A stretch of 64,000 nucleotides of DNA from Hymenobacter sp. (GCF_036388155.1 NZ_DASVSI010000145.1:13047-77046), one strand, 5' to 3'; positions 27,840 to 46,857 are shown, counted from the stretch's first letter. Notes: generated by a model not told the origin, from the sequence alone. Numbers and translations are program-made.

Positions 27840-27904
27840 GTAGCGCGGACTTTTAGTCCGCGACGCAATAGCACTACCACGCGCGGACTAAAAGTCCGCG
27901 CTAC
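27840..27904. repeat. GTAG-type REP doublet (REPIN-like)
   Basis: GTAGCGCGGACTTTTAGTCCGCG at 27840-27862 and its exact reverse complement at 27882-27904; each unit is GTAG plus an internal palindrome. Confidence 0.85.
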
Positions 27905-29791: not shown

Positions 29792-30380
29792 ATTCCCCCA
29801 AGGTTGTTTCGGGGGTGCCCAGGCGCCGGTTCAGCAAGTTGTCGACCACCTCAAATAGGCGGCGCGGCTCGTAGGTGCGCCATGGCAAATCGTCGAGCTG
29901 GCCACCAAAATTGATGTAGTTGTCGACGTTGTATTGGTGCATTTCGCGTTGCACGTGCTCCTGGAAGTTCACGCCCGCAATCCAGCCTTCTTCCACGTCC
30001 TCAAACCATTCCTCGTAGTACGAATCGTCGGAGCCGTGGAAATTGAACACGTTCTCGCCCACCAGCACAAACTTGCGCACGCCCTCGTGCACCAGCACGT
30101 CCACGATGTTGCGCTTCAGCTCCATGATGTCGTTTTCGATGGCGTCGTTCCATTCTCCAATGAATTCGAGCACGGCCACGCCGTCCTCGTAGTCCACAAA
30201 CAGTATTTTCAGGAACAGCGTGTCCGACCCCAGGCTGTCCCATTGCGGGTGGATGTAGTACCCGTATATGGTATTGGTGAAGCTCTCGAGACTATTCTCG
30301 GCTTCAAACAACGGAGAACGAGGGTCTTCCGAAGCCGAATATTGGTCAATCCAGTTGTAGTGGGGCTCGATGGTGTGCAT
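29790..30380 (-). CDS. Conserved acidic hypothetical protein, possibly STAS-like
   Basis: 196-aa ORF with biased codon usage; YIHPQWD, GEWND, FHGSDDSYYEEW. Confidence 0.75.
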   Translation of the reverse strand: MHTIEPHYNWIDQYSASEDPRSPLFEAENSLESFTNTIYGYYIHPQWDSLGSDTLFLKILFVDYEDGVAVLEFIGEWNDAIENDIMELKRNIVDVLVHEGVRKFVLVGENVFNFHGSDDSYYEEWFEDVEEGWIAGVNFQEHVQREMHQYNVDNYINFGGQLDDLPWRTYEPRRLFEVVDNLLNRRLGTPETTLGE

Positions 30381-30497
30381 GATAGGGAAGGAGGGGTTTG
30401 CTTAAAACGCACCATCGTGCGTCCGGTTACCCATTTCGCTGCCAAGCGAACGGCGTTTTCTAACGCCAAACCTGCCCACCCGCGTTCCTGTTCGGGC

Positions 30498-31292
30498 TTA
30501 GCGCGCCATCAAGGCGGCGCGCACGCTGCCGTGTTGTTTCAGCAGGGCAGCCGCTTCCGCTTCGTCAATGCCGAGCTCGTCCATCAGCATCCGTTCGCCG
30601 CGCTCCACCAACTTCACGTTGGAAAGTTTCATGTCGACCATCTTGTTGCCCCGCACGTAACCCAACCGCACAAACGTGGCCGTGGTGAGCATGTTGAGCA
30701 CCATTTTCTGCGCCGAACCAGCCTTGAGGCGGGTGCTACCGGTCAGAAACTCCGGGCCCGTCACCACTTCCACGGGGAATTCCGCAGCCGCAGCCACGGC
30801 CGAGCCCGCATTGCAGACCACGCAGCCCGTGGCCACGCCCATGGCGCGCGCCTGCGTGAGGCCTCCTATCACGTAAGGAGTGCGGCCCGATGCGGCAATG
30901 CCCACCAGCACGTCCTTGCTGCTGATGCTGTGCGCCTGCAAGTCCTTCCAGGCTTGTTCGGCGTCGTCTTCCGCGCCCTCCACCGCCACCCGAATGGCCG
31001 AGTCGCCGCCCGCCATGATGCCCACTACCATTTCGGCGGGCACTCCAAACGTGGGCGGGCACTCCGAGGCATCCACCACACCCAACCGGCCACTGGTGCC
31101 AGCACCAATGTAAAAGAGCCGTCCGCCCGCCCCGAGCCGCGCCACCGTCACTTCGACCAACTGCTCTATCTGAGGCAGTGATTTGGCCACCGTTTGGGGC
31201 ACTGTGTGGTCGAGCTGGTTCATGGCTTCCAGCACAGCGGTGGTGGAAAGGGTCTCGAGGTGGTCGTAGTAGGAGGGGGATTCGGTGGTCAT
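30498..31292 (-). CDS. murQ: N-acetylmuramic acid 6-phosphate etherase
   Basis: GAGTSGRLGVVDASECPPTF, GIAASGRTPY, TGPEFLTGSTRLKAG, MVDM. Confidence 0.95.
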   Translation of the reverse strand: MTTESPSYYDHLETLSTTAVLEAMNQLDHTVPQTVAKSLPQIEQLVEVTVARLGAGGRLFYIGAGTSGRLGVVDASECPPTFGVPAEMVVGIMAGGDSAIRVAVEGAEDDAEQAWKDLQAHSISSKDVLVGIAASGRTPYVIGGLTQARAMGVATGCVVCNAGSAVAAAAEFPVEVVTGPEFLTGSTRLKAGSAQKMVLNMLTTATFVRLGYVRGNKMVDMKLSNVKLVERGERMLMDELGIDEAEAAALLKQHGSVRAALMAR

Positions 31293-32981: not shown

Positions 32982-34763
32982 ATGGACGTTCGCCGCGCTT
33001 TCGATATCCTGCCTCACCAACTGGCCACTTCGCCTAAAAGTGACGCTTTAGCCGCCAAGACTGACGGTCAATGGGTACCCAAAAGCACCCAGCAACTGCA
33101 AGACGAGGCCAACCTGGTCAGCCTGGGCTTGGTGGCCTTGGGCCTCAAGCACGGCGACAAAGTGGCCATCATCAGCATGAACCGGCCCGAGTGGATGCTG
33201 GCCGATTTCGGCATCTCGCAGATTGGCGCCGTGAGCGTGCCTATGTACCCGAGCATCACCGTCGAAGACTACAAATACATTTTCACCGATGCCGGCGTAC
33301 GCGCCGTGTTCGTGGCCGACGAAAAGCTATACGACAAGGTGAAAGAGGCCACGGCTGGCCTCGACATTCCGGCGGAAAACATCTTTACTTTCGACCGCAT
33401 TGCCGGCGCTCGTCATTTCGACGAATTGCTGGCTTTGGGCAAGAAAGGCAACGCCGCCGACCTAGAGCCCCTGAAAGCCGCCGTGCAGCCCGACGACTTG
33501 CTGACCCTCATCTACACCAGCGGCACGACCGGCAGCCCTAAGGGCGTCATGCTCAGCCACGACAACATCTTGAGCAATTGCCGCAGCTCGCAGCGCTTCG
33601 TACCCGTTACCAAGGATGATAAGGCGCTGAGCTTTCTGCCTTTGTGCCACATTTTCGAGCGGATGGTTACCTATCTCTACATGTTTAACGGCGTGAGCAT
33701 TTACTACGCCGAGAGCATGGAAGTCATTGCCGACAACCTGCGCGAGGTGAAGCCCCAGATTTTCACCACCGTGCCGCGTTTGCTGGAGAAGGTGTACGAC
33801 AAGATTGTGGCCAAAGGCCACGAGCAGGAAGGCGTGAAGAAAAGCCTGTTCTTCTGGGCGTTGGACTTGGGCTTGAAGTTCGACACGCAGAAGAACCAGG
33901 GCTTCATGTACAACACACAGCTGGCCCTGGCGAACAAAATCATCTTTAATAAGTGGCGCGACGCCTTGGGCGGCAACTTGCGCTGCATCGTGAGCGGCGG
34001 CGGTGCCTTGCAGCCGCGCTTAGCGCGCGTGTTCTGGGCCGCTGGTATTCGGGTGATGGAGGGCTACGGGCTGACGGAAACTTCGCCCGTGATTGCGGTG
34101 GGCGGCTACGAGCCCGAAAACAACATGATTGGTACCGTGGGGCCGATTATTGACAACGTTGAGGTCAAGATTGCGAGCGACGGCGAGATTCTTACTAAGT
34201 CGGCCTCGGTAATGAAGGGCTACTACAACAAGCCCGACCTCACGGCCAAGGAGTTCGACGAGGAAGGCTGGTTCCACACCGGCGACATTGGCGAACTGGT
34301 GAATGGCAAGTTCTTAAAAATCACCGACCGCAAGAAGGAAATGTTCAAGACCTCGGGCGGCAAGTACATTGCCCCGCAGGTTATTGAGGGCAAGCTGAAA
34401 GAAGACCCGCTCATCGAGCAAGCCATGGTGGTGGGCGCCGACCAGAAGTTTCCTTCGGCCTTGGTCATCCCCTCATTTGCCGACCTAAAAGGCTGGTGCA
34501 AGCGCAACGACGTTGACTGCAACTGCTCCAACGAGGAACTGATTAAGAACGAGAAGGTAGTGGACCTCTACGAGGACCTGGTGAAGAAGTACAACAAGAG
34601 CTTCGCGCAATGGGAGCAGGTGAAGCGCATTGTGCTGCTGCCGGAGCTGTGGAGCGTGGAGACTGGCGAACTAACGCCTACCATGAAGGTGAAGCGCAAG
34701 GTCATCACCGAGAACAACAAAGACTTGATAGAGGGCCTGTACCATCACGCCGAGAAGCGGTAG
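32982..34763 (+). CDS. Long-chain fatty acid-CoA ligase (AMP-dependent synthetase)
   Basis: IYTSGTTGSPKGVM, GYGLTE, WFHTGDIG, ITDRKKEMFK. Confidence 0.93.
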   Translation: MDVRRAFDILPHQLATSPKSDALAAKTDGQWVPKSTQQLQDEANLVSLGLVALGLKHGDKVAIISMNRPEWMLADFGISQIGAVSVPMYPSITVEDYKYIFTDAGVRAVFVADEKLYDKVKEATAGLDIPAENIFTFDRIAGARHFDELLALGKKGNAADLEPLKAAVQPDDLLTLIYTSGTTGSPKGVMLSHDNILSNCRSSQRFVPVTKDDKALSFLPLCHIFERMVTYLYMFNGVSIYYAESMEVIADNLREVKPQIFTTVPRLLEKVYDKIVAKGHEQEGVKKSLFFWALDLGLKFDTQKNQGFMYNTQLALANKIIFNKWRDALGGNLRCIVSGGGALQPRLARVFWAAGIRVMEGYGLTETSPVIAVGGYEPENNMIGTVGPIIDNVEVKIASDGEILTKSASVMKGYYNKPDLTAKEFDEEGWFHTGDIGELVNGKFLKITDRKKEMFKTSGGKYIAPQVIEGKLKEDPLIEQAMVVGADQKFPSALVIPSFADLKGWCKRNDVDCNCSNEELIKNEKVVDLYEDLVKKYNKSFAQWEQVKRIVLLPELWSVETGELTPTMKVKRKVITENNKDLIEGLYHHAEKR

Positions 34764-34851
34764 GAGTAAGAAGAGGTAGGGAGTGAGAAGCTTGAAGCCG
34801 AAGGATTGGGTTATACCTTTATGGCAAACTATCATTTCTTATTTCTTTTTA

Positions 34852-35628
34852 ATGAAACACTCTCTACTCTTTGTGTCTGCCATCTGTGTGGGAACATTGC
34901 TTAATGGCTGTAAAGGCAAAGACGGCGACCCCGGACCCGCAGGTCCGGCCGGACCAAGCCTCACCGGTGGCATCGTAGGCTTCATGGATACCATGGACGA
35001 ATTTGGTGTCACACAGGCAAAAAATGGAGTAACGGTGACTTTGGAGAACGTCACACCTGCCGTCACGGTTACTACCGATGCCAGCGGCCGTTACGAACTG
35101 GCCAATGTAAAAAGTGGTACCTACACCATGGTATATACCAAGCCCGGCTATGGTACCATCAAGGTGCAAGGCTACCCGCACGTTGGTGGCAGCCAGCCCA
35201 GTTTTCTTTACACGCGCCAGCTTATGGGCGTTTCGGGTACCACGGTTACCTCGACAGCGGTAGGTCCGATTCAAGGCACGGGAGCAAACCGGTATCGTCT
35301 GATAACGGCCGCTCTTGCCAATCCTAGCCAGTCCATAAACCGGGGGCTTCGTGCCCACATGTTCCTTGGGACTTCGGCCACCGTCACCTCAGCAACCGGG
35401 GTTAGCTACTTTAGCGGCTCTTCGAATGGCTCTACCAGTGATTTCTATATGGAAGGCCCGGCTCTTAATCAGCAGGGCTTCGCCAGCGGCTCAACCGTAT
35501 ATGCTATCATTTACGGTGCTCCTTACGGATACGGAGAAGACAGCTACACCGACATCATGACGGGTCGCCGGGTATACACTTGCCTGAACCCGAACGGTAC
35601 GCGCGTGGTGTCGTTCATTGTACCCTAG
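34852..35628 (+). CDS. Lipoprotein with short collagen-like repeat and carboxypeptidase-regulatory-like Ig domain
   Basis: LNGC lipobox, GKDGDPGPAGPAGP, TTDASGRYELANVKSGTYTMVYTKPGY. Confidence 0.75.
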   Translation: MKHSLLFVSAICVGTLLNGCKGKDGDPGPAGPAGPSLTGGIVGFMDTMDEFGVTQAKNGVTVTLENVTPAVTVTTDASGRYELANVKSGTYTMVYTKPGYGTIKVQGYPHVGGSQPSFLYTRQLMGVSGTTVTSTAVGPIQGTGANRYRLITAALANPSQSINRGLRAHMFLGTSATVTSATGVSYFSGSSNGSTSDFYMEGPALNQQGFASGSTVYAIIYGAPYGYGEDSYTDIMTGRRVYTCLNPNGTRVVSFIVP

Positions 35629-35655: not shown

Positions 35656-35690
35656 AAAAAAGTCGTCTGAATTTTCAGACGGCTTTTTTT
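35656..35690 (+). terminator. Intrinsic terminator
   Basis: AAAAAAGTCGTCTGA-ATTT-TCAGACGGCTTTTTTT. Confidence 0.8.
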
Positions 35691-35698
35691 GTTATAAA

Positions 35699-35716
35699 TG
35701 TTATGCAAGCCTAACA
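35699..35716. promoter_or_regulatory. Putative MarR operator 1 (TGTTATGC-AA-GCCTAACA)
   Basis: Near-palindrome 9 nt upstream of the -7-like TAAGTTTA (35726); matches the sites at 40075 and 40143. Confidence 0.7.
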
Positions 35717-35752
35717 AATTATTCGTAAGTTTACCGCTCTTACAGCCCGCTT

Positions 35753-36232
35753 ATGAAACCCGAAGAAACCGTAGACTACAACATTAAAGTGGCCTGGCAC
35801 GCGATTTCGCGGATGTATAACACCCAGGCGGCGCAAAACGACATCACTACCAGCATCGGCTTCGTGTTGTTGAACATCGACCAGGAGAAGGGCACGCCGG
35901 CCACCAAAATTGCGCCGCTGCTCGGCCTCGAAACCCGCAGCCTCACCCGCATTTTGCGAAGCATGGAGGAAAAGGGCCTCATCTACAAGCAGGCCGACTC
36001 GGTGGACAAACGCTCGGTGCGCATTTTCCTCACGCCGCTTGGCTTGGAGAAAAAGGAAGTGTCGCGGCAGACCGTGCGCCACTTCAACCTGAAAATGCGG
36101 GAAAAAATCTCGCAGAGCCAGCTTGACAACTTCTTCAAAGTGGCCGCCCAGATTACGGGCATGATTGAGGGCAAGACCCTCTTCGAAGACTTTGTGCTGA
36201 AACCCTTGCGGCAGGAGCCCTCGGCAGCCTAA
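35753..36232 (+). CDS. MarR-family transcriptional regulator
   Basis: wHTH with LTRILRSMEEKGLIYK and DKRSVRIFLTPLG. Confidence 0.92.
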   Translation: MKPEETVDYNIKVAWHAISRMYNTQAAQNDITTSIGFVLLNIDQEKGTPATKIAPLLGLETRSLTRILRSMEEKGLIYKQADSVDKRSVRIFLTPLGLEKKEVSRQTVRHFNLKMREKISQSQLDNFFKVAAQITGMIEGKTLFEDFVLKPLRQEPSAA

Positions 36233-36299
36233 AAGCAGGCGGCGAACGGCTTTTGCCACCCCACTTCATTTCTTTCCCACCCCTTCACCCCATCAGAGG

Positions 36300-38708
36300 A
36301 TGAATAGAACCATCAAGAAAGTTGCCGTGCTCGGTTCCGGCGTCATGGGCTCGCGCATTGCCTGCCACTTCGCCAACATTGGCGTGCAGGTGCTCTTGCT
36401 CGACATCGCGCCGAAAGAATTGCTGCCCGACGAAGAGAAAAAAGGCTTGAAGCTAGACGCGCCAGCGGTGAAAAACCGCTTGGTGAACGCCGCGCTGCAA
36501 GCCGCCATCACTTCCAACCCGTCGCCGCTCTACCGCAAGGCCGACGCCAGCCGCATCAAGACCGGCAACTTCGACGACAACCTGAAGGAAATTGCGGGCT
36601 GCGACTGGACCATTGAAGTGGTTGTGGAGCGCCTCGACATCAAAAAGAGCCTGTTTGAGCGCGTGGAGCAATTCCGCAAGCCCGGCACGCTCATCACCAG
36701 CAACACGAGCGGCATCCCAATTCACTTGATGACGGAAGGTCGCTCCGACGATTTCAAGAAGCATTTCTGCGGCACGCACTTCTTCAACCCGCCGCGCTAC
36801 CTGAAGCTGCTCGAAATCATCCCGACGCCGGACACCGACCCGGCCATCGTGGATTTCCTGCTGCATTACGGCGACCTGTACCTGGGCAAAACCACGGTAC
36901 TGGCCAAGGACACCCCGGCGTTCATCGCCAACCGGGTGGGCGTGTTCGCCATCATGGACGTGCTGCGCATCATGCAGGAGCTGGGCCTGACGGTGGAGGA
37001 AGTGGACAAGCTCACCGGCCCGGTAATTGGCCACGCCAAGTCGGCCACCTTCCGCACTTCCGACGTGGTAGGCCTTGATACCTTGATGAACGTGGCCAAT
37101 GGCCTGGCCCAGGGCCTGCCAAACGACGAAGCCAAGGACGTATTCCAGCTGCCCGATTTCCTCAAGAAAATGGGCGAGAACAAGTGGCTGGGCGACAAAA
37201 CCGGCCAGGGATTCTACAAGAAAGTAAAAGGCGAAGGCGGCAAGTCGGAAATTCAGGCGCTGGACCTTGCTACGCTGGAATACAAGCCCAGCGCCAAGGT
37301 GAAGTTCACGACGTTGGAGCTAACGAAGAGCATGGATACCCTGGCGCCGCGCTTTGCGGTGCTGGTAACGGGTAAGGACAAAGCCGGCGAATTCTACCGC
37401 AAGAGCTTCGGCAGCCTGTTTGCCTACGTGACCAACCGCGTGCCCGAAATCACCGACGCGCTCTACAAGATTGACGACGCCCTCCGCGCCGGTTTCGGCT
37501 GGGAAATGGGGCCGTTTGAAACCTGGGACGCCATGGGTGTGCAAAAAGGCATCGAGCTGATGCAAGCCGAAGGCAAGCAGCCCGCTGCCTGGGTTACTGA
37601 AATGCTGGCCGCCGGCCACACCACGTTCTACAAAGTAAACGCGGCCGGCAGTAAGGAATACTACGACGCCGAGACCAAGAGCTACCAGCCCATCCGCGGC
37701 GTGGAGAATTTCATCATTCTTGACAACCTGCGGACCACCGGCAAGGTGCTGTGGAAAAACGCTGGCGCCTCAATCATCGACCTCGGCGATGGCATCCTGA
37801 ACGTGGAGTTCCATTCCAAGATGAACTCGCTGGGGCAGGACGTTATCGAAGGCGTGCTGCGCGGCGTTGACATGGCTGAAGCCGGCTACCGCGGCCTCGT
37901 GATTGGCAACGACGCGCCGAACTTCTCGGCCGGCGCTAACCTGGGCTTGGTGTACATGCAGGCGCTCGAGCAGGAGTTTGAGGAGCTGAACATGATGATT
38001 GCGCAGTTCCAGAACGCCATGATGCGCATGCGCTACAGCAGCATTCCGGTGGTGGGCGCCCCGCACGGCCTCGCGCTGGGCGGCGGTTGCGAAATCAACC
38101 TGCACTGCGACCGGGTGGTGGCCGCGGCCGAAACCTATATGGGCCTCGTTGAATTCGGCGTGGGCCTGATTCCGGCCGGCGGCGGTACCAAGGAAATGAC
38201 CTTGCGCACGGCGGCCAAGTACGAAGAAGGCGAGCCCGAGCTCAACCTGATTCGCAATACCTACATGACTATCAGCACGGCCAAAGTTTCGACGTCGGCC
38301 GCTGAGGCGTTCGACCTTGGCTTCATGCGCCGCGGCGACGAGATTGTGGTGAACAGCAACCGCGTGATTGCCGCCGCCAAAGCCGCCGCCCTCGACCTGG
38401 CCGATGCCGGCTACACCCAGCCGATGCCGAAAACCAACATCAAAGTGCACGGCAAGGGCGCGCTGGCCATGTTCAAAACCGGCGTGTACGCCATGCAGCA
38501 GGGCAACTACATCTCGACGCACGACCAGCTCATTGCCGACAAACTGGCTTACGTGATGTGCGGCGGCGACCTCTCGTCGCCCACGGAAGTGAGCGAGCAG
38601 TACCTGCTGGATTTGGAGCGCGAAGCCTTCCTCAGCCTCTGCGGCGAGCGCAAGACGCTGGAGCGCATCCAGAGCATCCTGACCACCGGCAAGCCGCTGC
38701 GCAACTAA
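36300..38708 (+). CDS. fadN: 3-hydroxyacyl-CoA dehydrogenase / enoyl-CoA hydratase (FadN-like)
   Basis: GSGVMG Rossmann motif, EVVVE, SNTSGIP, HFFNPPRY, C-terminal crotonase FSAGANL/LGGGCE. Confidence 0.9.
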   Translation: MNRTIKKVAVLGSGVMGSRIACHFANIGVQVLLLDIAPKELLPDEEKKGLKLDAPAVKNRLVNAALQAAITSNPSPLYRKADASRIKTGNFDDNLKEIAGCDWTIEVVVERLDIKKSLFERVEQFRKPGTLITSNTSGIPIHLMTEGRSDDFKKHFCGTHFFNPPRYLKLLEIIPTPDTDPAIVDFLLHYGDLYLGKTTVLAKDTPAFIANRVGVFAIMDVLRIMQELGLTVEEVDKLTGPVIGHAKSATFRTSDVVGLDTLMNVANGLAQGLPNDEAKDVFQLPDFLKKMGENKWLGDKTGQGFYKKVKGEGGKSEIQALDLATLEYKPSAKVKFTTLELTKSMDTLAPRFAVLVTGKDKAGEFYRKSFGSLFAYVTNRVPEITDALYKIDDALRAGFGWEMGPFETWDAMGVQKGIELMQAEGKQPAAWVTEMLAAGHTTFYKVNAAGSKEYYDAETKSYQPIRGVENFIILDNLRTTGKVLWKNAGASIIDLGDGILNVEFHSKMNSLGQDVIEGVLRGVDMAEAGYRGLVIGNDAPNFSAGANLGLVYMQALEQEFEELNMMIAQFQNAMMRMRYSSIPVVGAPHGLALGGGCEINLHCDRVVAAAETYMGLVEFGVGLIPAGGGTKEMTLRTAAKYEEGEPELNLIRNTYMTISTAKVSTSAAEAFDLGFMRRGDEIVVNSNRVIAAAKAAALDLADAGYTQPMPKTNIKVHGKGALAMFKTGVYAMQQGNYISTHDQLIADKLAYVMCGGDLSSPTEVSEQYLLDLEREAFLSLCGERKTLERIQSILTTGKPLRN

Positions 38709-38712
38709 TCAT

Positions 38713-38821
38713 TTGTCATGCTAACAAAGGCGGCATCTTATCACAGCCGCTTTTGTTAGCGTTTTAACAACCCCCAGCAGCGCCGGCGTGATAAGGGCCT
38801 TCGCTGCACTCAGGATGACAA
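38713..38821. repeat. TGTCAT...ATGACA-bounded palindromic repeat (CGTC/TGTC-type), left arm rearranged
   Basis: TTGTCAT/ATGACAA termini; CTTATCAC (38737-44) pairs with GTGATAAG (38788-95); internal 15-bp hairpin 38720-34/38746-60. Confidence 0.7.
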
Positions 38822-38831
38822 TCAACTTAAC

Positions 38832-40016
38832 ATGTCTAACACTGCATATATCGTAGCCGGTTACCGCACGGCCGTGGGCAAAGCCACCCGCGGCGGTTTC
38901 CGCTTCACTCGGCCCGACGACCTCGCAGCCACCGTTATCAAGCACCTCGTGGCCCAAGTGCCGGCGCTTGACCCCGCGCGCATCGACGACGTACTGGTGG
39001 GCAATGCCGTGCCCGAAGCCGAGCAAGGCCTGCAAATGGGCCGCCTCATTTCGCTGCTGGCGTTGCCCATCAACGTGCCCGGCCTCATCGTGAACCGCTA
39101 CTGCGGCTCCGGCGTGGAAACCATTGCCATGGCCGTGGGCAAAATCTCGGCCGGTATGGCCGACTGCATCATTGCCGGCGGCACCGAGAGCATGAGCATG
39201 GTGCCCACCGTGGGCTGGAAAACCGTGCCCAACTACAACTTGGCCACCAAGCACCCCGACTACTACATGGGTATGGGCCTCACGGCCGAAGCCGTGGCCA
39301 ACGACTACAAAATCAGCCGCCAGGACCAGGACGAATTCTCTTACAACTCGCACCAGAAGGCCATCAAGGCCATCGAAGGCGGCAAGTTTAAGAAGCAAAT
39401 TGTGCCCGTGACTGTGGACGAAACCTACGTGGACCAGGCCACCGGCAAGAAGAAAACCCGCTCGTTCGTGGTGGATACCGACGAAGGTCCGCGCGCCGAC
39501 ACCTCGGTGGAAGCCCTCGCCAAACTGCGCCCCGTGTTCGCCGCCAACGGCACCGTGACAGCCGGCAACTCTTCCCAAACTTCCGACGGTGCTGCCTTCG
39601 TGCTGGTAATGTCGGAGCGCATGGTGAAAGAATTGAACCTGGAGCCCATTGCCCGCATGGTCAATTACGCTTCCGAAGGCGTTGACCCGCGCATCATGGG
39701 CATGGGCCCGATGGTGGCTGTGCCCAAAGTGCTGAAACAAGCCGGCATGAAGCTCGAGGACATCGATTTGATTGAAATGAACGAGGCGTTTGCCTCACAG
39801 TCCATCGCCGTGATGCGCGAACTGGACATGAACCCCGAAAAGCTGAACGTGAACGGCGGCGCCATTGCCTTGGGCCACCCCCTGGGCTGCTCCGGTGCCA
39901 AGCTCTCCATCCAGCTATTCGACGAGCTGCGCGAGCGCGGCCAGAAGTACGGCATGGTCACTGCCTGCGTGGGCGGCGGCCAAGGCGTGGCCGGTATTTA
40001 CGAGTTGCTAAAGTAG
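38832..40016 (+). CDS. fadA: Acetyl-CoA C-acyltransferase (thiolase)
   Basis: NRYCGSG catalytic Cys, [24 protein letters not shown]. Confidence 0.93.
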
Positions 40017-40026
40017 CCAAGGCAGT

Positions 40027-40074
40027 TATCGGCGAAAGAAAGCCCCGCTCACCCGGGGTTTTCTTTCGCCGATA
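40027..40074. terminator. Long hairpin / terminator after the thiolase gene
   Basis: TATCGGCGAAAGAAAGCCCCG paired with CGGGGTTTTCTTTCGCCGATA. Confidence 0.65.
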
Positions 40075-40092
40075 TAGTAGGCGTGCCTAACA
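40075..40092. promoter_or_regulatory. Putative MarR operator 2 (TAGTAGGC-GT-GCCTAACA)
   Basis: 8 nt upstream of the -7-like TATATTGC (40101). Confidence 0.7.
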
Positions 40093-40142
40093 TTTTTTCT
40101 TATATTGCAACACTAAAACCGCTGGCTCATTGTTTGTCTAAA

Positions 40143-40160
40143 TAGTAGGCTAGCCTAACA
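40143..40160. promoter_or_regulatory. Putative MarR operator 3 (TAGTAGGC-TA-GCCTAACA)
   Basis: 16/16 half-site identity to operator 2; 31 nt before the acyl-CoA dehydrogenase ATG. Confidence 0.7.
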
Positions 40161-40191: not shown

Positions 40192-41982
40192 ATGGAAGTA
40201 ACGCAGCAAGCCAGCCTGAAGGGCGGCGAATTCATCATTAAACCGACGGATGCGCAGAGCGTCTTCACGCCGGCTGATTTCACCGAGGAGCAGAATTACA
40301 TGCACCAAACCTGCCTGGATTTCGTGCAGGCTGAAGTGCACCCGCTGCTCGAGCGCCTCGACAACCACGAGGAGGGCCTGATGCGCGGCCTGATGGAAAA
40401 GGCTGGTCAACTCGGCCTGTTTGGGGTGAGCGTGCCCGAGCAATTCGGCGGCCTCGACATGGATTTCCCCACGGCCCTGCGCGTGACCGAAGGCGTGGGC
40501 GGCGGCCACTCGTTCCCCGTAGCGTTTGCGGCCCACACGGGCATTGCCCTGCTGCCTATTCTGTATTTCGGCAACGACGAGCAGAAGGCCAAGTACCTGC
40601 CCGGCCTCACCAGTGGCGAGCTGATGGGTGCTTACTGCCTCACCGAGCCCGGCTCCGGTTCCGACGCCCTGGGCGCCAAAACCAAAGCTGTGCTCAACGC
40701 CGAAGGCACGCACTACGTGCTGAATGGCCAGAAAATGTGGATTACGAACGCCGGTTTTGCCGACGTATTCATCGTGTTTGCCCAGATTGACGGCGACAAG
40801 TTCACCGGTTTCATCGTGGAGAAAAACACGCCCGGCCTGAGCCTTGGCAACGAGGAGCACAAGATGGGCATCAAGGGCAGCAGCACGCGTCAGGTGTTCC
40901 TGGCTGATGCCTTGGTGCCGAAAGAGAACGTGCTGGGCGAGATTGGCAAAGGCCACCTCATCGCCTTCAACGTGCTGAACATCGGTCGCATCAAGCTGGC
41001 CGCTGCCTGCTTGGGCGCAGCTAAAATGGCGGCTACGTTGAGCGTGAAGTATGCCAACGAGCGGGTGCAGTTCAAACTGCCCATCTCCAAGTTTGGCGCC
41101 ATTCGGCACAAGCTGGCGCAGCAGGCCGTGCGTCTCTACGCTGTCGAGTCGGCTATTTACCGCGCGGGCTCCGACATCTACCGCATGGAGCAGCAACTCA
41201 TGGCGGAGGGCAAAGGCTCGAACGAGGCCTTGCTAGGCGCTGCCCGCGAGTTTGCCGTGGAGTGCGCCATTCTGAAAGTGGAAGGCTCGGAAGTGCTTGA
41301 TTATGTAGTGGACGAAGGCGTGCAGGTGTACGGTGGCTACGGCTTCTCGGCCGACTACCCCATGGACCGTGCCTACCGCGACTCACGCATCAACCGCATT
41401 TTCGAAGGCACCAACGAAATCAACCGCCTCCTGGCCGTTGACATGATTTTGAAGAAAGGCCTGAAAGGTGAAATCGACCTGATGGGCCCGGCCCAGGCGG
41501 TGCAGCAAGAGCTGCTGAGCATCCCCAGCCTGAGCCAGGACGAGGCCACCGGCCTGTTCAGCAAGGAGTACAAGACCATTGCCAACCTGAAGAAGGCGGT
41601 GCTCATGGTTGCTGGTTCGGCTGTGCAGAAGTTTACTGCCACCCTCGCCAAGGAGCAGGAGTTGTTGATGAACATCGCCGACATGGCCATCAAGGTGTAC
41701 ATCGCCGAGAGCACCCTGTTGCGCGTGGAGAAGGAAGCCGCGGCCAAGGGCGAAGAAGTCCTGGCTGCCGAGATTGACATTGCCCGCGTGTACCTAGCCG
41801 ATGCCGTGGACATTGTGGAGAAGGCCGGCAAAGACGCCGTTGGCAGCATGGCCGAGGGCGACGAGCAGCGCCTGTTGCTCATGGGCCTGAAGCGCTTCAC
41901 CAAGACCGAGCTGTTGAACGTGAAGGAATCGCGCCGCCGCATCGCCGCCAAGCTGATTGAAGCCAACGAGTACAGCTTCTAA
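40192..41982 (+). CDS. Acyl-CoA dehydrogenase (FadE/AcdA-like with C-terminal extension)
   Basis: YCLTEPGSGSDA, NGQKMWITN, KMGIKGSST, GGYGF, IFEGTNEI. Confidence 0.93.
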   Translation: MEVTQQASLKGGEFIIKPTDAQSVFTPADFTEEQNYMHQTCLDFVQAEVHPLLERLDNHEEGLMRGLMEKAGQLGLFGVSVPEQFGGLDMDFPTALRVTEGVGGGHSFPVAFAAHTGIALLPILYFGNDEQKAKYLPGLTSGELMGAYCLTEPGSGSDALGAKTKAVLNAEGTHYVLNGQKMWITNAGFADVFIVFAQIDGDKFTGFIVEKNTPGLSLGNEEHKMGIKGSSTRQVFLADALVPKENVLGEIGKGHLIAFNVLNIGRIKLAAACLGAAKMAATLSVKYANERVQFKLPISKFGAIRHKLAQQAVRLYAVESAIYRAGSDIYRMEQQLMAEGKGSNEALLGAAREFAVECAILKVEGSEVLDYVVDEGVQVYGGYGFSADYPMDRAYRDSRINRIFEGTNEINRLLAVDMILKKGLKGEIDLMGPAQAVQQELLSIPSLSQDEATGLFSKEYKTIANLKKAVLMVAGSAVQKFTATLAKEQELLMNIADMAIKVYIAESTLLRVEKEAAAKGEEVLAAEIDIARVYLADAVDIVEKAGKDAVGSMAEGDEQRLLLMGLKRFTKTELLNVKESRRRIAAKLIEANEYSF

Positions 41983-42059: not shown

Positions 42060-43514
42060 CTACTTCACTACCACCTTTTCCAGCTGCAACGCGGCCGATT
42101 TTTTGCTCGGTCGGCTCACGGCGATGATGGTTTTCTCGTTGAGCCAGCCCGTAAAGTCTTTCACGTAAGCCAATTGCTGGTCGGCCGCCACGTTTAGCTT
42201 GAGGCGTTCGGGAGCGCCTACCACGCCGGTTTGCGCATTGATGCGGCGCAGGTAGAGGTCCGATTTTTTGTCAATGCTTTCGAGGGTAACCAGCTGGATG
42301 GTGTTGCCGAACACCGCCGCCCGGAAACCAATGCCGGTGAAACTGTCCACGGCCGGCGCAACTTGGTTTTTGGCCACAATGCTGTGCCAGGTGGGCTGGC
42401 CGTATTCGTTGTAGCCGAACACGTGCAGCTCACGGGCGTGTACGGGCGATTCGCTGCCGCCTTCCTCAAAATGCCGCTCGGCAATCACCACCAGTTGCTT
42501 CTCGGGCGTGAGCAGCAACTCGCCCAGATATACATCCTGCAGCTGTTTCACGTCCACGCCACTGGCTTTGCTTACTTCGGCCAGGTAGGCAGGCGTGAAG
42601 CGAAACTCCGGCGAGAACTTCATGTCGCCGGCGCCGCTAAAGTCGTATTTCACCACCTTCAGGCTGTAGTATTCTCCGCTCACGTAGTCGGCGCACAGCG
42701 CGGCGGCGTACAGGCTGCCATCGTTGAGCACGGTGAAGCGGGCATCGCGGATGGTGACGGCCTTGCCGCCAAAAGTGCCGCCCACGGGCACTCCCAGGAC
42801 TTTAATTTCGGGAGAATTGTCGGCGGTGTAGCGGCGCACGGTCAGCTTCTTCATGCCGTCGCTAACCATTGTCACGTACTGCGTGCCGTCGTTGGCCACG
42901 TGCACGGTCGGGGAGAAGAAGTCGCCCTGGTCGCGGAAATTGTAGGCCTTCTGTTGCAGCTGATTCAAGTTCTGGTCGAACAGCGTGGACGCAATGCTTA
43001 CCACCTGCTGCCCGCGGGTGAGGTAGCGAAACGCCAGCAGCCGCGACCCATCGGGCGAGATGGAAACGCTGGGACGCCGGTCGCGGGGTGCCACCGCCAT
43101 CACCATTTTAGCCGGGCTGCGCTGGCCGTTTTGCATGTTCACGGCCACCACGCTAAGGTTTTGGCCGCCATCGTCTTTGTGATGCAGCACCACCAAGGCT
43201 TGCTGCGGGCCCCGCCCGAAGGCTTCCAACGTTTCGCCTGGGTTGATGGGAATGGTGGTGCTCCATTGCTTTTTCAACTCGACGTCGTAGCGCTCCACGG
43301 AGTAGCCGCCTGCGCTTTGGTGCGCCAGAATCACAAACCCCGAACCATCGGCCAGGGGCAGCGTCTTGCGCGGCACGCGCATGTCGTACCGGTCGGGCCC
43401 TTGCTCCGGCAGGTAGCTAAAAGGGGCGGACTTTACTTTTTGAGCCATCACCGGGGCTGCGCTGCCCGTCAGCATCCATCCCGTCAATCCAATCAGCAAT
43501 GCTCTATGCAACAT
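42060..43514 (-). CDS. Secreted hypothetical protein, beta-propeller-like
   Basis: Signal peptide ending MAQ; repeated short beta-strands (SISPDGSRLL, HVANDGT, LLTPEKQL). Confidence 0.7.
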   Translation of the reverse strand: MLHRALLIGLTGWMLTGSAAPVMAQKVKSAPFSYLPEQGPDRYDMRVPRKTLPLADGSGFVILAHQSAGGYSVERYDVELKKQWSTTIPINPGETLEAFGRGPQQALVVLHHKDDGGQNLSVVAVNMQNGQRSPAKMVMAVAPRDRRPSVSISPDGSRLLAFRYLTRGQQVVSIASTLFDQNLNQLQQKAYNFRDQGDFFSPTVHVANDGTQYVTMVSDGMKKLTVRRYTADNSPEIKVLGVPVGGTFGGKAVTIRDARFTVLNDGSLYAAALCADYVSGEYYSLKVVKYDFSGAGDMKFSPEFRFTPAYLAEVSKASGVDVKQLQDVYLGELLLTPEKQLVVIAERHFEEGGSESPVHARELHVFGYNEYGQPTWHSIVAKNQVAPAVDSFTGIGFRAAVFGNTIQLVTLESIDKKSDLYLRRINAQTGVVGAPERLKLNVAADQQLAYVKDFTGWLNEKTIIAVSRPSKKSAALQLEKVVVK

Positions 43515-44157: not shown

Positions 44158-46257
44158 TTAACTGATTCGGCTCCAATTGACGGCCGTGGCCGGCAGGCTC
44201 TCAATGTGCCGACGGATGTTGGCGTTGTCTGGGTGCACTAAGTCGGGGTCTTCTGTCAGCAGGGTTTGCGCGGCGGCTCGGCTCTCGCTCAGAATGCGGC
44301 CGTCTTTGGCCAGGTCGGCAATGAGCAAGTCCAGCACTCCGCTTTGCTGAGTGCCCATGAGGTCGCCCGGGCCGCGCAGCTTCAGGTCGATGTCGGCTAT
44401 TTCGAACCCGTTGTTGGTGCGGACCATGGTTTCCAGGCGGGTGCGGGCGTCTTTGCTTAGCTTGAAGCCCGTCATCAGGATGCAGTAGCTCTGGTCGGCG
44501 CCCCGGCCCACCCGGCCACGGAGCTGGTGCAGCTGCGAAAGCCCAAACCGCTCGGCCGACTCAATGACCATTACGGAGGCGTTGGGCACGTTCACGCCGA
44601 CTTCGATAACGGTGGTTGCCACCATAATCTGGGTTTCACGCTTGATGAAGCGCTGCATCTCGAAATCCTTCTCCTCCGCCTTCATGCGCCCGTGCACAAT
44701 GCTGATTTGGAACTCCGGAAAGGCGCGGGATACGCTTTCGTAGCCGTCGGTTAGGTCTTTGTAGTCCATCGTTTCCGACTCCTCAATCAGCGGGTACACG
44801 ATGTAAACCTGCCGGCCCAGCTTGACTTGGTCGCGAATGAACTCGAACACTTTCAGGCGGTTGGCGTCGTATCGGTGCACGGTCACGATGGGTTTCCGGC
44901 CGGCGGGTAGCTCGTCAATCACGCTCACGTCGAGGTCGCCATATAGCGTCATGGCCAGGGTGCGCGGGATGGGCGTGGCCGTCATCACCAGCACGTGGGG
45001 GATGATGTGTGGGTTTTTCTGCCACAGCTTCGAGCGCTGAGCCACCCCAAAACGGTGTTGCTCGTCCATGATGGTGAGGCCCAGGTTGCGGAACTGCACC
45101 ACGTCTTCTAGCAAAGCGTGGGTGCCCACCAGCATGTGCATGGTGCCGTTGCGCAGGGCTTCGTGCAACACGCGCCGTTCGGCCGTGCGGGTACTGCCCG
45201 TGAGTTTGCCAATGCTGATGCCCAACTCGTCGGCATACACTTTCAAACCGGTGTAATGCTGGTCGGCCAGAATTTCGGTGGGGGCCATGATGCAGCTTTG
45301 GGCGCCGTTGTCGGCCGCCATCAGCATGGCAATGAAGGCCACAATGGTTTTGCCCGAGCCCACGTCGCCTTGCAGCAGGCGGTTCATCTGCCGCCCAGTG
45401 CAAAAATCCTTATAAATGTCATGGATAACGCGTTTTTGCGCGCCGGTTAGGTCAAACGTCAGATGGTTTTTGTAAAAGTCCACTAGAGTTGGGACTTCTT
45501 TAAAAATCTGACCCGCGAGCGTCACTTTGCGCTGGTCGCGCTGCCGTAGCAGCTTGAGTTGCACGTAAAACAGCTCTTCAAACTTCAGGCGGAACTTGGC
45601 TGCGGCTAGTAGCTCGGGGCTTTGCGGGAAGTGAATCTGTTGCAGCGCCTGGGCCTTGCTCATCAGGCCGTAGTGCTCTACGAGTGCCGGCGACAACGAC
45701 TCCGTGATGTGAGACTGGGCTAGCTTCAGCAGCTCGGCCACCATCCGCATGATGGCTTTGCTGTCGACGCGGTGATAATTCTTGAGCTTCTCCGACGTGT
45801 TGTATACCGGCTGCAGGAAGCTTTGGCCCGGTTTGGCTTCGGTTACTTCCTCCAGTTCCGGGTGGGCCATCTGTGGCCGGCCGTTGAACATGGTGGGCTT
45901 GCCGAAAACGATGTATTCCTGATTATTTTTGGTGTATTGCTGCACCCACTTCACGCCCTTGAACCACACCACTTCCAGCTCGCCGGTGCCGTCGCCCACC
46001 TTGGCCACCAGGCGCTGCTTGGGGCCTTCGCCAATTAATTCTTTGCCGCGCAGCAGGCCCTTTACTTGCACGTAAGGCAAGTCGTCGTGCAAATCGGCAA
46101 TGCTATACACCTGCGTCCGGTCCAGGTAACGGAAAGGGTAGCGCTGAATCAGGTCCCCGTAGGTGAACAGCCCCAACTCCTTGCCCAGCAACTGTGCGCG
46201 CTGGGTACTGCCCACCGTGCGCAAAAACTCCAGCCGGGTATTGAAGAAATTACTCAT
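44158..46257 (-). CDS. recG: ATP-dependent DNA helicase RecG
   Basis: Wedge OB-fold, QGDVGSGKT, APTEILA, DEQHRFG, MTATPIPRT, QLHQLRGRVGR, DLKLRGPG. Confidence 0.97.
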   Translation of the reverse strand: MSNFFNTRLEFLRTVGSTQRAQLLGKELGLFTYGDLIQRYPFRYLDRTQVYSIADLHDDLPYVQVKGLLRGKELIGEGPKQRLVAKVGDGTGELEVVWFKGVKWVQQYTKNNQEYIVFGKPTMFNGRPQMAHPELEEVTEAKPGQSFLQPVYNTSEKLKNYHRVDSKAIMRMVAELLKLAQSHITESLSPALVEHYGLMSKAQALQQIHFPQSPELLAAAKFRLKFEELFYVQLKLLRQRDQRKVTLAGQIFKEVPTLVDFYKNHLTFDLTGAQKRVIHDIYKDFCTGRQMNRLLQGDVGSGKTIVAFIAMLMAADNGAQSCIMAPTEILADQHYTGLKVYADELGISIGKLTGSTRTAERRVLHEALRNGTMHMLVGTHALLEDVVQFRNLGLTIMDEQHRFGVAQRSKLWQKNPHIIPHVLVMTATPIPRTLAMTLYGDLDVSVIDELPAGRKPIVTVHRYDANRLKVFEFIRDQVKLGRQVYIVYPLIEESETMDYKDLTDGYESVSRAFPEFQISIVHGRMKAEEKDFEMQRFIKRETQIMVATTVIEVGVNVPNASVMVIESAERFGLSQLHQLRGRVGRGADQSYCILMTGFKLSKDARTRLETMVRTNNGFEIADIDLKLRGPGDLMGTQQSGVLDLLIADLAKDGRILSESRAAAQTLLTEDPDLVHPDNANIRRHIESLPATAVNWSRIS

Positions 46258-46266
46258 TCTTCGTCC

Positions 46267-46857
46267 CTACTTATACTTCAGCGTGTTAATCATGCGTACC
46301 ATGTCGGTTTTCACGTATTCAATCACGGGCGCCAGCGAGTCGTTGGCCGTGGCCGTTTTGAAGTACAGGGCCCCGCGCAGGAAGTGCTTGGTGCTATCGG
46401 TGGTGTAGAACTGAAACTGGCTGGGCACCTCGCCCTGCAGTTCAAACACCGAAGCCCGAATGCCGCTGGGCGTCTTCAAAATGCGCTCATCAATGGCCGT
46501 GGCCTTGATTTCGTGCTTGCCCGTCAGTTTGCGGGCGTCCTCCATCATCTTGTTGTACAGGCGCCGGTCGCGCTGCACGTCCATGTAGGTAATCTGCACG
46601 TTGGCGTTCAGCTTGGGGTAGTACACGTTCAGCCAGTGCGGCTGCGCCATGTACGAAGAGTCCCGCTTTATCACCGCTTCCTTTGAGTATTCGAAAGAAT
46701 AAGGATGGCCGCCGGGCAGTTGCTGGTAGCTGTGCTTCGGCAAATCGATGCGGTTGTAGCCTTTGGGCTTGGGCGTAAAATCCGGCGCCGACGAGCAGCC
46801 CGCCAGCAACCCAACTCCCACCATCAGCCCAAGTGTTATTCTCAGTATCGACACCAC
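46267..46857 (-). CDS. gldD: Gliding motility lipoprotein GldD
   Basis: LAGC lipobox, PKPKGYNR, QFYTTDSTKHFLRGALYF, DSLAPV. GTG start is approximate. Confidence 0.9.
   Translation of the reverse strand: MVSILRITLGLMVGVGLLAGCSSAPDFTPKPKGYNRIDLPKHSYQQLPGGHPYSFEYSKEAVIKRDSSYMAQPHWLNVYYPKLNANVQITYMDVQRDRRLYNKMMEDARKLTGKHEIKATAIDERILKTPSGIRASVFELQGEVPSQFQFYTTDSTKHFLRGALYFKTATANDSLAPVIEYVKTDMVRMINTLKYK

Follow-up and report, generated by a model that had tools for sequence, protein, structure and literature searches.

The stretch of DNA analyzed here (the window) comprises 64,000 nucleotides (nt) of Hymenobacter sp., and all coordinates are counted from its first letter. It carries a cluster of genes for fatty-acid breakdown, in which the gene for a MarR-family regulator (marR; its product is referred to below as MarR) is followed by fadN, fadA, and fadE and preceded by a gene for a long-chain fatty-acid–coenzyme A (CoA) ligase. 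Three 18-bp imperfect dyads, one upstream of marR and two upstream of fadE, are predicted to be operators of this regulator (Table 1). The order ligase-marR-fadN-fadA-fadE is usual in related loci, and in most Cytophagales the ligase gene adjoins marR.

Table 1. Features of the fatty-acid breakdown cluster (window coordinates; aa, amino acids).
Feature	Coordinates	Strand	Description and evidence
Ligase	32982..34763	+	Long-chain fatty-acid–CoA ligase, FadD-like, AMP-forming; Pfam AMP-binding, 263 bits; NCBIfam FadD11-like
281-aa protein	34783..35628	+	CarboxypepD_reg protein between ligase and marR; Pfam PF13620
Hairpin	35664..35690	+	Terminator-like hairpin and T7 run just before O(marR), ending the upstream gene; stem 35664-35681, T run 35684-35690
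O(marR)	35699..35716	.	TGTTATGCAAGCCTAACA; 18-bp imperfect dyad, pattern search; predicted operator
-7-like box	35726..35733	+	TAAGTTTA; consensus TAnnTTTG; 9 nt past the end of O(marR)
marR	35753..36232	+	159-aa MarR-family winged-helix regulator; PF01047, 46 bits (cut-off 24.6)
fadN	36300..38708	+	802-aa 3-hydroxyacyl-CoA dehydrogenase/enoyl-CoA hydratase (FadN/FadB type); Pfam 3HCDH_N, 3HCDH, ECH_1
fadA	38832..40016	+	394-aa 3-ketoacyl-CoA thiolase; Pfam Thiolase_N, Thiolase_C
Hairpin	40031..40070	+	Terminator-like 17-bp hairpin in the gap between fadA and the fadE promoter; core 40043-40058 by scan, full stem read from the sequence
O1(fadE)	40075..40092	.	TAGTAGGCGTGCCTAACA; 18-bp imperfect dyad, pattern search; predicted operator
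-7-like box	40101..40108	+	TATATTGC; 8 nt past the end of O1; consensus match only
O2(fadE)	40143..40160	.	TAGTAGGCTAGCCTAACA; 32 nt before the fadE ATG; predicted operator
fadE	40192..41982	+	596-aa acyl-CoA dehydrogenase, Bacillus FadE type; NCBIfam NF058590, 846 bits (cut-off 600)

An earlier note on this sequence had reported three copies of the motif starting at 35699, 40075, and 40143. These positions are exact, and the three sites are the sole matches to the pattern of that note in the window, with up to two mismatches allowed. Dinucleotide-preserving shuffles yield 0.15 matches on average, and none of 100 shuffles reaches the observed three. The halves of each dyad are symmetric at six to seven of the eight positions. 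The right half, GCCTAACA, occurs in the window exactly three times, each time within one of the sites; the claim that it is invariant holds in this genome but not in the genus, as sites of other Hymenobacter read GCATAACA, GCCGAGTA, GCCTACTA, etc. Similarly, the 18-bp motif is real, but the consensus initially given for it is a local form, particular to this species, of a wider consensus, which for Hymenobacter can be written as T-R-N-T-M-K-G-C-WW-G-C-M-K-A-N-Y-A. Two weak matches elsewhere in the window, at 46284 (score 12.3, before recG) and at 45891, were judged to be due to chance.

The first two sites lie immediately upstream of boxes resembling the Bacteroidota -7 element, at the spacings of 9 and 8 nt, in agreement with the 8–9 nt noted earlier. 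With the usual Bacteroidota spacing from these boxes, the -33 element is predicted to fall inside O(marR) and inside O1, also as proposed. O2 starts 68 nt downstream of the start of O1 and is situated after the predicted fadE promoter and before the fadE ATG, that is, downstream of the predicted transcription start, where the earlier note had placed it. Both operator regions are preceded by terminator-like hairpins, which suggests that fadE is transcribed separately from marR-fadN-fadA. A scan for sigma-70-type promoters was uninformative (one match against 3.5 expected), which is the expected outcome in Bacteroidota.

The site upstream of marR is highly conserved. A pattern scan of named genomes yielded at least 594 relatives, of which the 80 best loci, 14 kb each, were examined. 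A high-scoring site was found 38–152 nt ahead of marR in 78 of these 80 Cytophagales loci, which include Hymenobacter, Pontibacter, Rufibacter, Algoriphagus, Fulvivirga, Marivirga, Chryseolinea, and Spirosoma, and the rest of each 14-kb locus contains hardly any match of comparable score. In Hymenobacter, the site is located ca. 36 nt before the ATG (site start at about -54) in all 22 intact orthologues. The DNA upstream of marR cannot be aligned across these 22 orthologues except for one block, consisting of the 18-bp site (mostly TAGTATGCAAGCATAACA), a spacer of 8–9 nt, and GTA(A/T)GTTTACCG; the last element holds a -7-type box, TAnnTTTG, that is kept genus-wide. In other families of the order, the site ahead of marR reads, e.g., TGTTATGCATGCATAATA.

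Conservation extends beyond the order. In a class-wide sample of 301 Bacteroidota genomes, MarR was present in 45 genomes from 27 genera, and in all 29 loci examined the dyad TAnTATGC(A/G)(T/C)GCATAnTA was found 24–195 nt upstream of marR, often doubled, with the copies 29–30 nt apart. In the same 29 loci, fadN is directly downstream of marR. Thus, the motif, which had been expected at orthologous promoters, was present in every lineage examined. On this comparison, we take TAnTATGC-RY-GCATAnTA to be the ancestral form of the dyad. In most Hymenobacter species, both halves of the site ahead of marR retain the ancestral TATGC, whereas the half-sites at the target genes have drifted to T(A/C)GGC.

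The pair of sites upstream of fadE has a narrower distribution. Pairs with the sites 67–70 nt apart were seen in 20 of 23 other Hymenobacter genomes; among the named Hymenobacter-like loci, 24 of 28 have the pair. It is specific to Hymenobacter; in other families, fadE closely follows fadA and has no site of its own.

To describe the regulon in the complete genome, we constructed a symmetrized matrix from 44 distinct Hymenobacter sites (the genus matrix), a broad matrix having been used earlier. In 6.1 Mb, the genus matrix identifies nine sites scoring above 20 bits, with a gap below 22, compared to 0.45 sites on average for 20 symmetric column-permuted matrices. All nine are intergenic or at the 5′ end of a gene. 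They precede marR, fadE (two sites), fadL (PF03349), the gene for the N-terminal part of EtfD (a membrane 4Fe-4S protein), a PRK12834 flavin adenine dinucleotide (FAD)-binding dehydrogenase, a gene for a 165-aa protein, a divergent pair encoding a GMC-oxidoreductase and a 4HBT_2 thioesterase, and an alpha/beta hydrolase. With the broad matrix, O(marR) has the top position weight matrix (PWM) score of the whole genome, 27.3, and weaker sites are also seen ahead of etfB and a second hydrolase gene. Genome-wide scans had been predicted to reveal sites ahead of fad, etf, and lipid genes, and they do; the predicted regulon is larger than the window had suggested, with the addition of fadL, the split EtfD, the 165-aa protein, and the thioesterase.

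Three of the added genes are conserved targets. The fadL site is kept in 25 of 25 genomes, its bases varying while the palindrome stays (e.g., TAGTCGGCAAGCCGACTA and TATTCGGCACGCCGAATA); the EtfD site is present in every genome whose upstream region was covered; and the site of the 165-aa gene was found in 22 of 23 Hymenobacter genomes and in one other family. By their conserved sites, fadL, the split EtfD, and the 165-aa gene are predicted genus-wide members of the regulon.

The assignment of EtfD is based on two adjacent genes (contig C75:3972-6429). The 464-aa product of the first one aligns with the Mycobacterium smegmatis EtfD structure (PDB 9OJN) up to chain residue 478 (E = 5e-38), and the adjacent 301-aa product aligns with residues 480–703 (E = 1e-68), and thus the pair is collinear with the single 1042-aa mycobacterial protein to about residue 703. 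This suggests that the putative operator controls a split EtfD, that is, an electron transfer flavoprotein (ETF):quinone oxidoreductase. PDB 9OJN has been identified as the M. smegmatis EtfD (PMC13083937), and the role of EtfD in beta-oxidation has been described (PMC8593149).

The 165-aa protein (contig C36:43717-44214) is rich in alanine and lysine, and its predicted operator at C36:43627 is among the best sites. It has a conserved N-terminal region of ca. 75 aa, no Pfam family match, and only a spurious NCBIfam match. The gene is flanked by an ABC1/UbiB kinase gene downstream and an Abhydrolase_3 lipase/esterase gene upstream. We consider the protein a candidate new component of lipid metabolism.

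The gene of the FAD-binding dehydrogenase (C121:91658-93313) has a site with the score of 26.7 that ends 9 nt before the ATG. It was considered as a core member of the regulon and is treated as species-specific, the gene being present in six of 41 relatives and the site in two. This enzyme of the PRK12834 type may have an accessory function in lipid catabolism.

The ligase gene behaves differently. The earlier note had reported a half-site before it, and TTGTAGGC is indeed present, but it is not a site: PWM scores in the intergenic region do not exceed -3.8, and an operator was found ahead of the ligase in none of the 80 related loci. Hence the half-site is best explained by chance, and the ligase was rejected as a regulon member.

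The dyad was also found in an independent lineage. In five genera of Flavobacteriaceae, the exact sequence TATGCRYGCATA occurs in four to eight places per genome, compared to zero or one for the reversed control. We extracted the locus of every site and assigned the genes using Pfam. The dyad is located ahead of marR-fadN in all five genomes and ahead of etfB also in all five (loci L190, L191, L193, L202, and L204). Five further sites are located ahead of genes for TonB-dependent receptors, and the dyad also precedes genes for FadH (2,4-dienoyl-CoA reductase), a 4HBT_2 thioesterase, and NMO/FabK-like and FabH-like proteins. Hence, a conserved operator shared by fad, etf, and transport genes, the mark of a fatty-acid degradation regulon, is found in both Hymenobacter and Flavobacteriaceae. 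In all five genomes, the gene divergent from etfB across the dyad encodes a protein similar to the E1-beta subunit of pyruvate/2-oxoacid dehydrogenases, and the regulon of this family may extend to a 2-oxoacid dehydrogenase.

The protein encoded by marR has no specific NCBIfam model (best score 37.7 against the cut-off of 200), and the database names of near-identical proteins are all generic. Its PF01047 match spans residues 37–89. An AlphaFold2 model (mean predicted local distance difference test score, pLDDT, of 89; monomer) has the canonical MarR topology, with helices 7–28, 33–40, 50–57, 61–73, 95–118, and 121–139 and strands 77–81 and 89–93, that is, the six-helix fold, the beta-hairpin wing, and the terminal dimer-interface helices of the family. 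Foldseek assigns the probability of 1.0 to matches with MepR, CouR, MarR, and SlyA, with TM (template modeling) scores up to 0.76. In the aligned orthologues, S63, R66, D85, and R87 are invariant; they lie within helix 61–73 and strands 77–93, which, from the model, are taken to be the recognition helix and the wing. Residue 69 is R in the aligned Hymenobacter sequences and K in the Flavobacterium protein. A PDB search yielded no close solved relative, the best sequence match having E = 2e-6.

Autoregulation via a site beside the regulator's own gene is the rule in the MarR family. The dyad 36 nt before the ATG, kept in ca. 130 orthologous loci, is the kind of palindromic site near the own promoter that would be expected from such a protein. 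The dyad is also linked with the presence of MarR across genomes. The raw count of TATGCNNGCATA is too noisy as a phyletic test, but becomes informative once the matches are sorted by spacer type: among the matches listed, operator-type spacers (AT, AA, TT, AC, GT) are observed in 25 of 34 TATGC-NN-GCATA matches in MarR-bearing genomes and in nine of 40 where MarR is absent, the latter being near the chance level of 31% (Fisher's test, p = 1.8e-5).

We propose that MarR binds the dyad, autoregulates, and represses a regulon of fatty-acid breakdown until released by a fatty-acid-derived ligand; taken as a whole, this is probably correct. Specifically, the 159-aa protein would bind the 18-bp dyad as a dimer. 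Over the -33 region of its own promoter, the dyad would provide autoregulation of marR-fadN-fadA; two dyads 68 nt apart would control fadE; and single dyads would control fadL, encoding the outer-membrane fatty-acid channel, the two-gene EtfD, the 165-aa gene, the acyl-CoA thioesterase, and lipase-like hydrolases, while a weaker dyad would place etfB in the regulon. Repression would proceed by promoter occlusion, with MarR blocking RNA polymerase, and at fadE O2 would add a roadblock or a second promoter. Comparative genomics gives strong support to the predicted regulon and to autoregulation, as well as to the control of beta-oxidation through the dyad that the earlier note had suggested.

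For the fadE pair, we considered cooperative looping, but the sites are not in helical phase, and we consider a roadblock or two stacked promoter-operator units more likely.

Several observations weigh against this interpretation or narrow it. That MarR is the binder, that it represses, and where the promoters lie are inferred from sequence comparison. The -7-like boxes match the consensus weakly (TATATTGC), and the consensus scan shows no such box after O2. The spacing of 67–70 bp at fadE is not an integral number of helical turns, and therefore cooperative looping is not obviously favored. At etfB, the site found here is degenerate (AAGGCTGCATGCATAACA; broad-matrix score 15.6) and is seen in just six of 23 other Hymenobacter genomes, in addition to two other families. 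Neither the thioesterase site (seven of 24 other Hymenobacter genomes) nor that of the FAD-binding dehydrogenase (two of six genomes having the gene) is genus-wide. The phyletic test reaches only the genomes among the matches listed. Finally, the nearest solved MarR proteins are 15–25% identical, and the sequence does not identify the ligand.

Most characterized fad regulators sense acyl-CoA. This, along with the lack of an operator at the ligase and the ability of CouR (PDB 5CYV) to bind a CoA thioester, makes long-chain acyl-CoA, supplied by the adjacent ligase, the most plausible inducer, by a modest degree. The main alternative retains the same regulon and the same binder, but has a free long-chain fatty acid, as with Pseudomonas PsrA, or some other intermediate as the effector. 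MarR proteins commonly bind small anionic lipophilic compounds. In a preprint (10.1101/2025.09.24.678253), a Pseudomonas MarR protein is reported to sense fatty or naphthenic acids. The presence of fadL in the regulon also makes an externally derived ligand plausible. On the other hand, a ligase without an operator in 80 loci fits a constitutive enzyme making the inducer, the GntR-type FadR, the TetR-type FadR of Bacillus and Thermus, and DesT all sense acyl-CoA, and CouR (5CYV, 6C2S) demonstrates that the MarR fold can accommodate a CoA thioester. None of these considerations is decisive, and the free acid is the less likely but still a serious candidate.

At six genes, those for EtfD, the thioesterase, the 165-aa protein, and the FAD-binding dehydrogenase among them, a TAnnTT box starts with the last TA of the operator; as the dyads overlap or abut core promoter elements, we infer that MarR is most likely a repressor. 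Activation, or a dual role at some or all promoters, could be suspected from the dyads ahead of the biosynthetic-looking FabH-like and FabK-like genes of Flavobacteriaceae, which recall the repression of fad genes and the activation of fab genes by E. coli FadR, and from sites lying far upstream, such as those of fadL (-87) and the 165-aa gene (-90). Yet the overlap with the predicted -33 or -7 elements at marR, at O1 of fadE, at EtfD, and at several other genes is the classic geometry of a repressor, and O2 is located between the predicted promoter and the ATG, making an activator or a dual regulator improbable. It is very unlikely that a different transcription factor binds the dyad and that the site at marR reflects coincidental co-regulation. 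The association of the dyad with MarR is indeed purely correlative, but it holds in ca. 130 of 132 orthologous loci from several orders, operator-type dyads are enriched only where the genomes (among the matches listed) encode MarR, two 8-nt halves with a 2-nt center fit a MarR dimer, and an adjacent autoregulatory site is what the family leads one to expect. As for the sites being chance repeats or a dispersed repeat of the repetitive extragenic palindrome (REP) type with no regulatory role, a REP-like palindrome, GTAGCGCGGACTTTTAGTCCGCGC, does occur 30 times in the genome. However, its sequence is unrelated to the dyad, about ten high-scoring dyads in 6.1 Mb are all at 5′ ends of functionally coherent genes, and their positions are fixed across species amid diverging flanks. 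This explanation is refuted by the shuffles, the conservation at orthologous promoters and at fadL, and the permuted-matrix scan, and retains a negligible probability.

In function, the proposed regulator would correspond to FadR of Bacillus and E. coli and to PsrA and FadP. The FadR (YsiA) regulon of Bacillus subtilis (lcfA-fadR-fadB-etfB-etfA and fadN-fadA-fadE) has the same enzyme types and order, fadN-fadA-fadE. The logic is also shared, as the regulator is in a fad cluster beside a ligase gene, palindromes occur at its own, other fad, and etf promoters, and induction is presumably by acyl-CoA. Unlike the TetR-family FadR of Bacillus, the regulator described here has a MarR winged helix and an unrelated operator sequence, and its predicted regulon includes the outer-membrane FadL and the split EtfD. 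The E. coli FadR (GntR, FCD) is a global regulator of fadL, fadE, and fadBA, as proposed here for MarR, and its dual role at fad and fab genes may have a parallel in the Flavobacteriaceae dyads at fab-like genes. By contrast, MarR is half the size, and E. coli FadR acts on fadD, while the ligase here has no site. Pfam and NCBIfam searches detected no GntR or FCD/FadR_C domain in MarR, the only matches being to MarR-type models, and Pfam detected no TetR_N, the protein of 159 aa having a winged helix-turn-helix and a beta wing; TetR-type regulators have, besides TetR_N, an all-helical ligand domain (about 190–230 aa). Since these features of the GntR-type and TetR-type regulators are absent, MarR falls outside the families of the E. 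coli and Bacillus FadR, PsrA, and FadP.

Within the MarR family, CouR and FerR (PDB 5CYV, 6C2S) are dimers that repress an operon of CoA-dependent catabolism and are released by the CoA thioester formed by the pathway ligase. The structural similarity to CouR-type proteins (TM 0.69–0.70, Foldseek ranks 8 and 40, 16–24% identity) is a generic fold match only, and these regulators differ in having aromatic substrates and local control, as opposed to the aliphatic substrates and regulon-wide control proposed here. FabT of streptococci and enterococci belongs to the MarR family as well and regulates fatty-acid metabolism through a palindromic operator, with acyl-ACP (acyl carrier protein) as the co-regulator. 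It differs in that it controls the biosynthetic fab operon with acyl-ACP as a corepressor, while here the targets are catabolic and an inducer is expected; FabT was not among the top Foldseek or PDB sequence matches of MarR. CouR and FabT are the closest conceptual relatives in the family. Lineage-specific replacements of FadR, with palindromes at fadBA, fadE, and etf, have been described by comparative genomics for PsrA of Pseudomonas and Shewanella and for FadP of Burkholderia (PMC5343134). Those, however, are TetR-family proteins of Proteobacteria.

In the literature searched, we found no description of this regulator and no worked-out regulator of fatty-acid degradation for Bacteroidota, in agreement with the earlier impression that it had not been characterized in this phylum. 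The control of fatty-acid degradation is known for Proteobacteria (the GntR-type FadR and the TetR-type PsrA and FadP) and, with TetR-type regulators, for Firmicutes, Thermus, and Actinobacteria. This leaves a gap in Bacteroidota, a dominant phylum in soil, oceans, and animals. New here are the operator variant of Hymenobacter, in which target half-sites read T(A/C)GGC and the site at marR keeps one TATGC half or both, the duplication of the fadE operator, and the predicted genus-wide members fadL, split EtfD, and the 165-aa protein. A wider proposal, on which we are evenly divided, is that MarR and its dyad form the master switch of fatty-acid catabolism in all aerobic Bacteroidota (Cytophagales, Flavobacteriales, and allies) and would be a third, independently evolved scaffold for acyl-CoA-responsive control of beta-oxidation beside GntR and TetR.

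If this wider proposal is true, the regulon joins uptake (FadL and TonB receptors), beta-oxidation, ETF/EtfD, and possibly fab genes, the 165-aa protein would be a new component of lipid metabolism, and the drift of half-sites would be a natural series for studying the co-evolution of operators and regulators. Regulator and operator are recognizable directly in the sequence, hundreds of genomes have retained the pair, and the regulon is predictable. This opens tests of lipid sensing and use, would improve the annotation of thousands of “MarR family” proteins, and suggests functions for regulon members such as the TonB receptors, the PRK12834 FAD-binding dehydrogenase, and the 165-aa protein. 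The regulator and its operator could also serve as a compact lipid-responsive switch in genetic tools for Bacteroidota. Conceptually, this is another non-orthologous replacement of a regulator rather than a new principle.

As for the remaining genes of the cluster, the fadN product scores 587 bits with the NCBIfam Staph_FadB model, under the cut-off of 999, and the fadE product contains the Pfam domains Acyl-CoA_dh_N, Acyl-CoA_dh_M, and Acyl-CoA_dh_1 plus a C-terminal domain. The 281-aa CarboxypepD_reg protein between the ligase and marR is encoded at this place in only three of the 80 related loci and does not belong to the conserved cluster. It may be a remnant or a fragment of a TonB-dependent receptor; the TonB receptors having dyads in Flavobacteriaceae share its N-terminal domain.

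Elsewhere in the window, two open reading frames, of 484 aa (42060-43514, minus strand) and 415 aa (29934-31181, plus strand), have no Pfam family match; the latter overlaps a SIS-domain gene on the opposite strand and may be spurious. A REP-like palindrome, (GTA)GCGCGGACT-NNNN-AGTCCGCGC, is located at 27881-27901. It has 30 copies in the genome and is also intergenic in other Hymenobacter species, e.g., upstream of marR in several loci.

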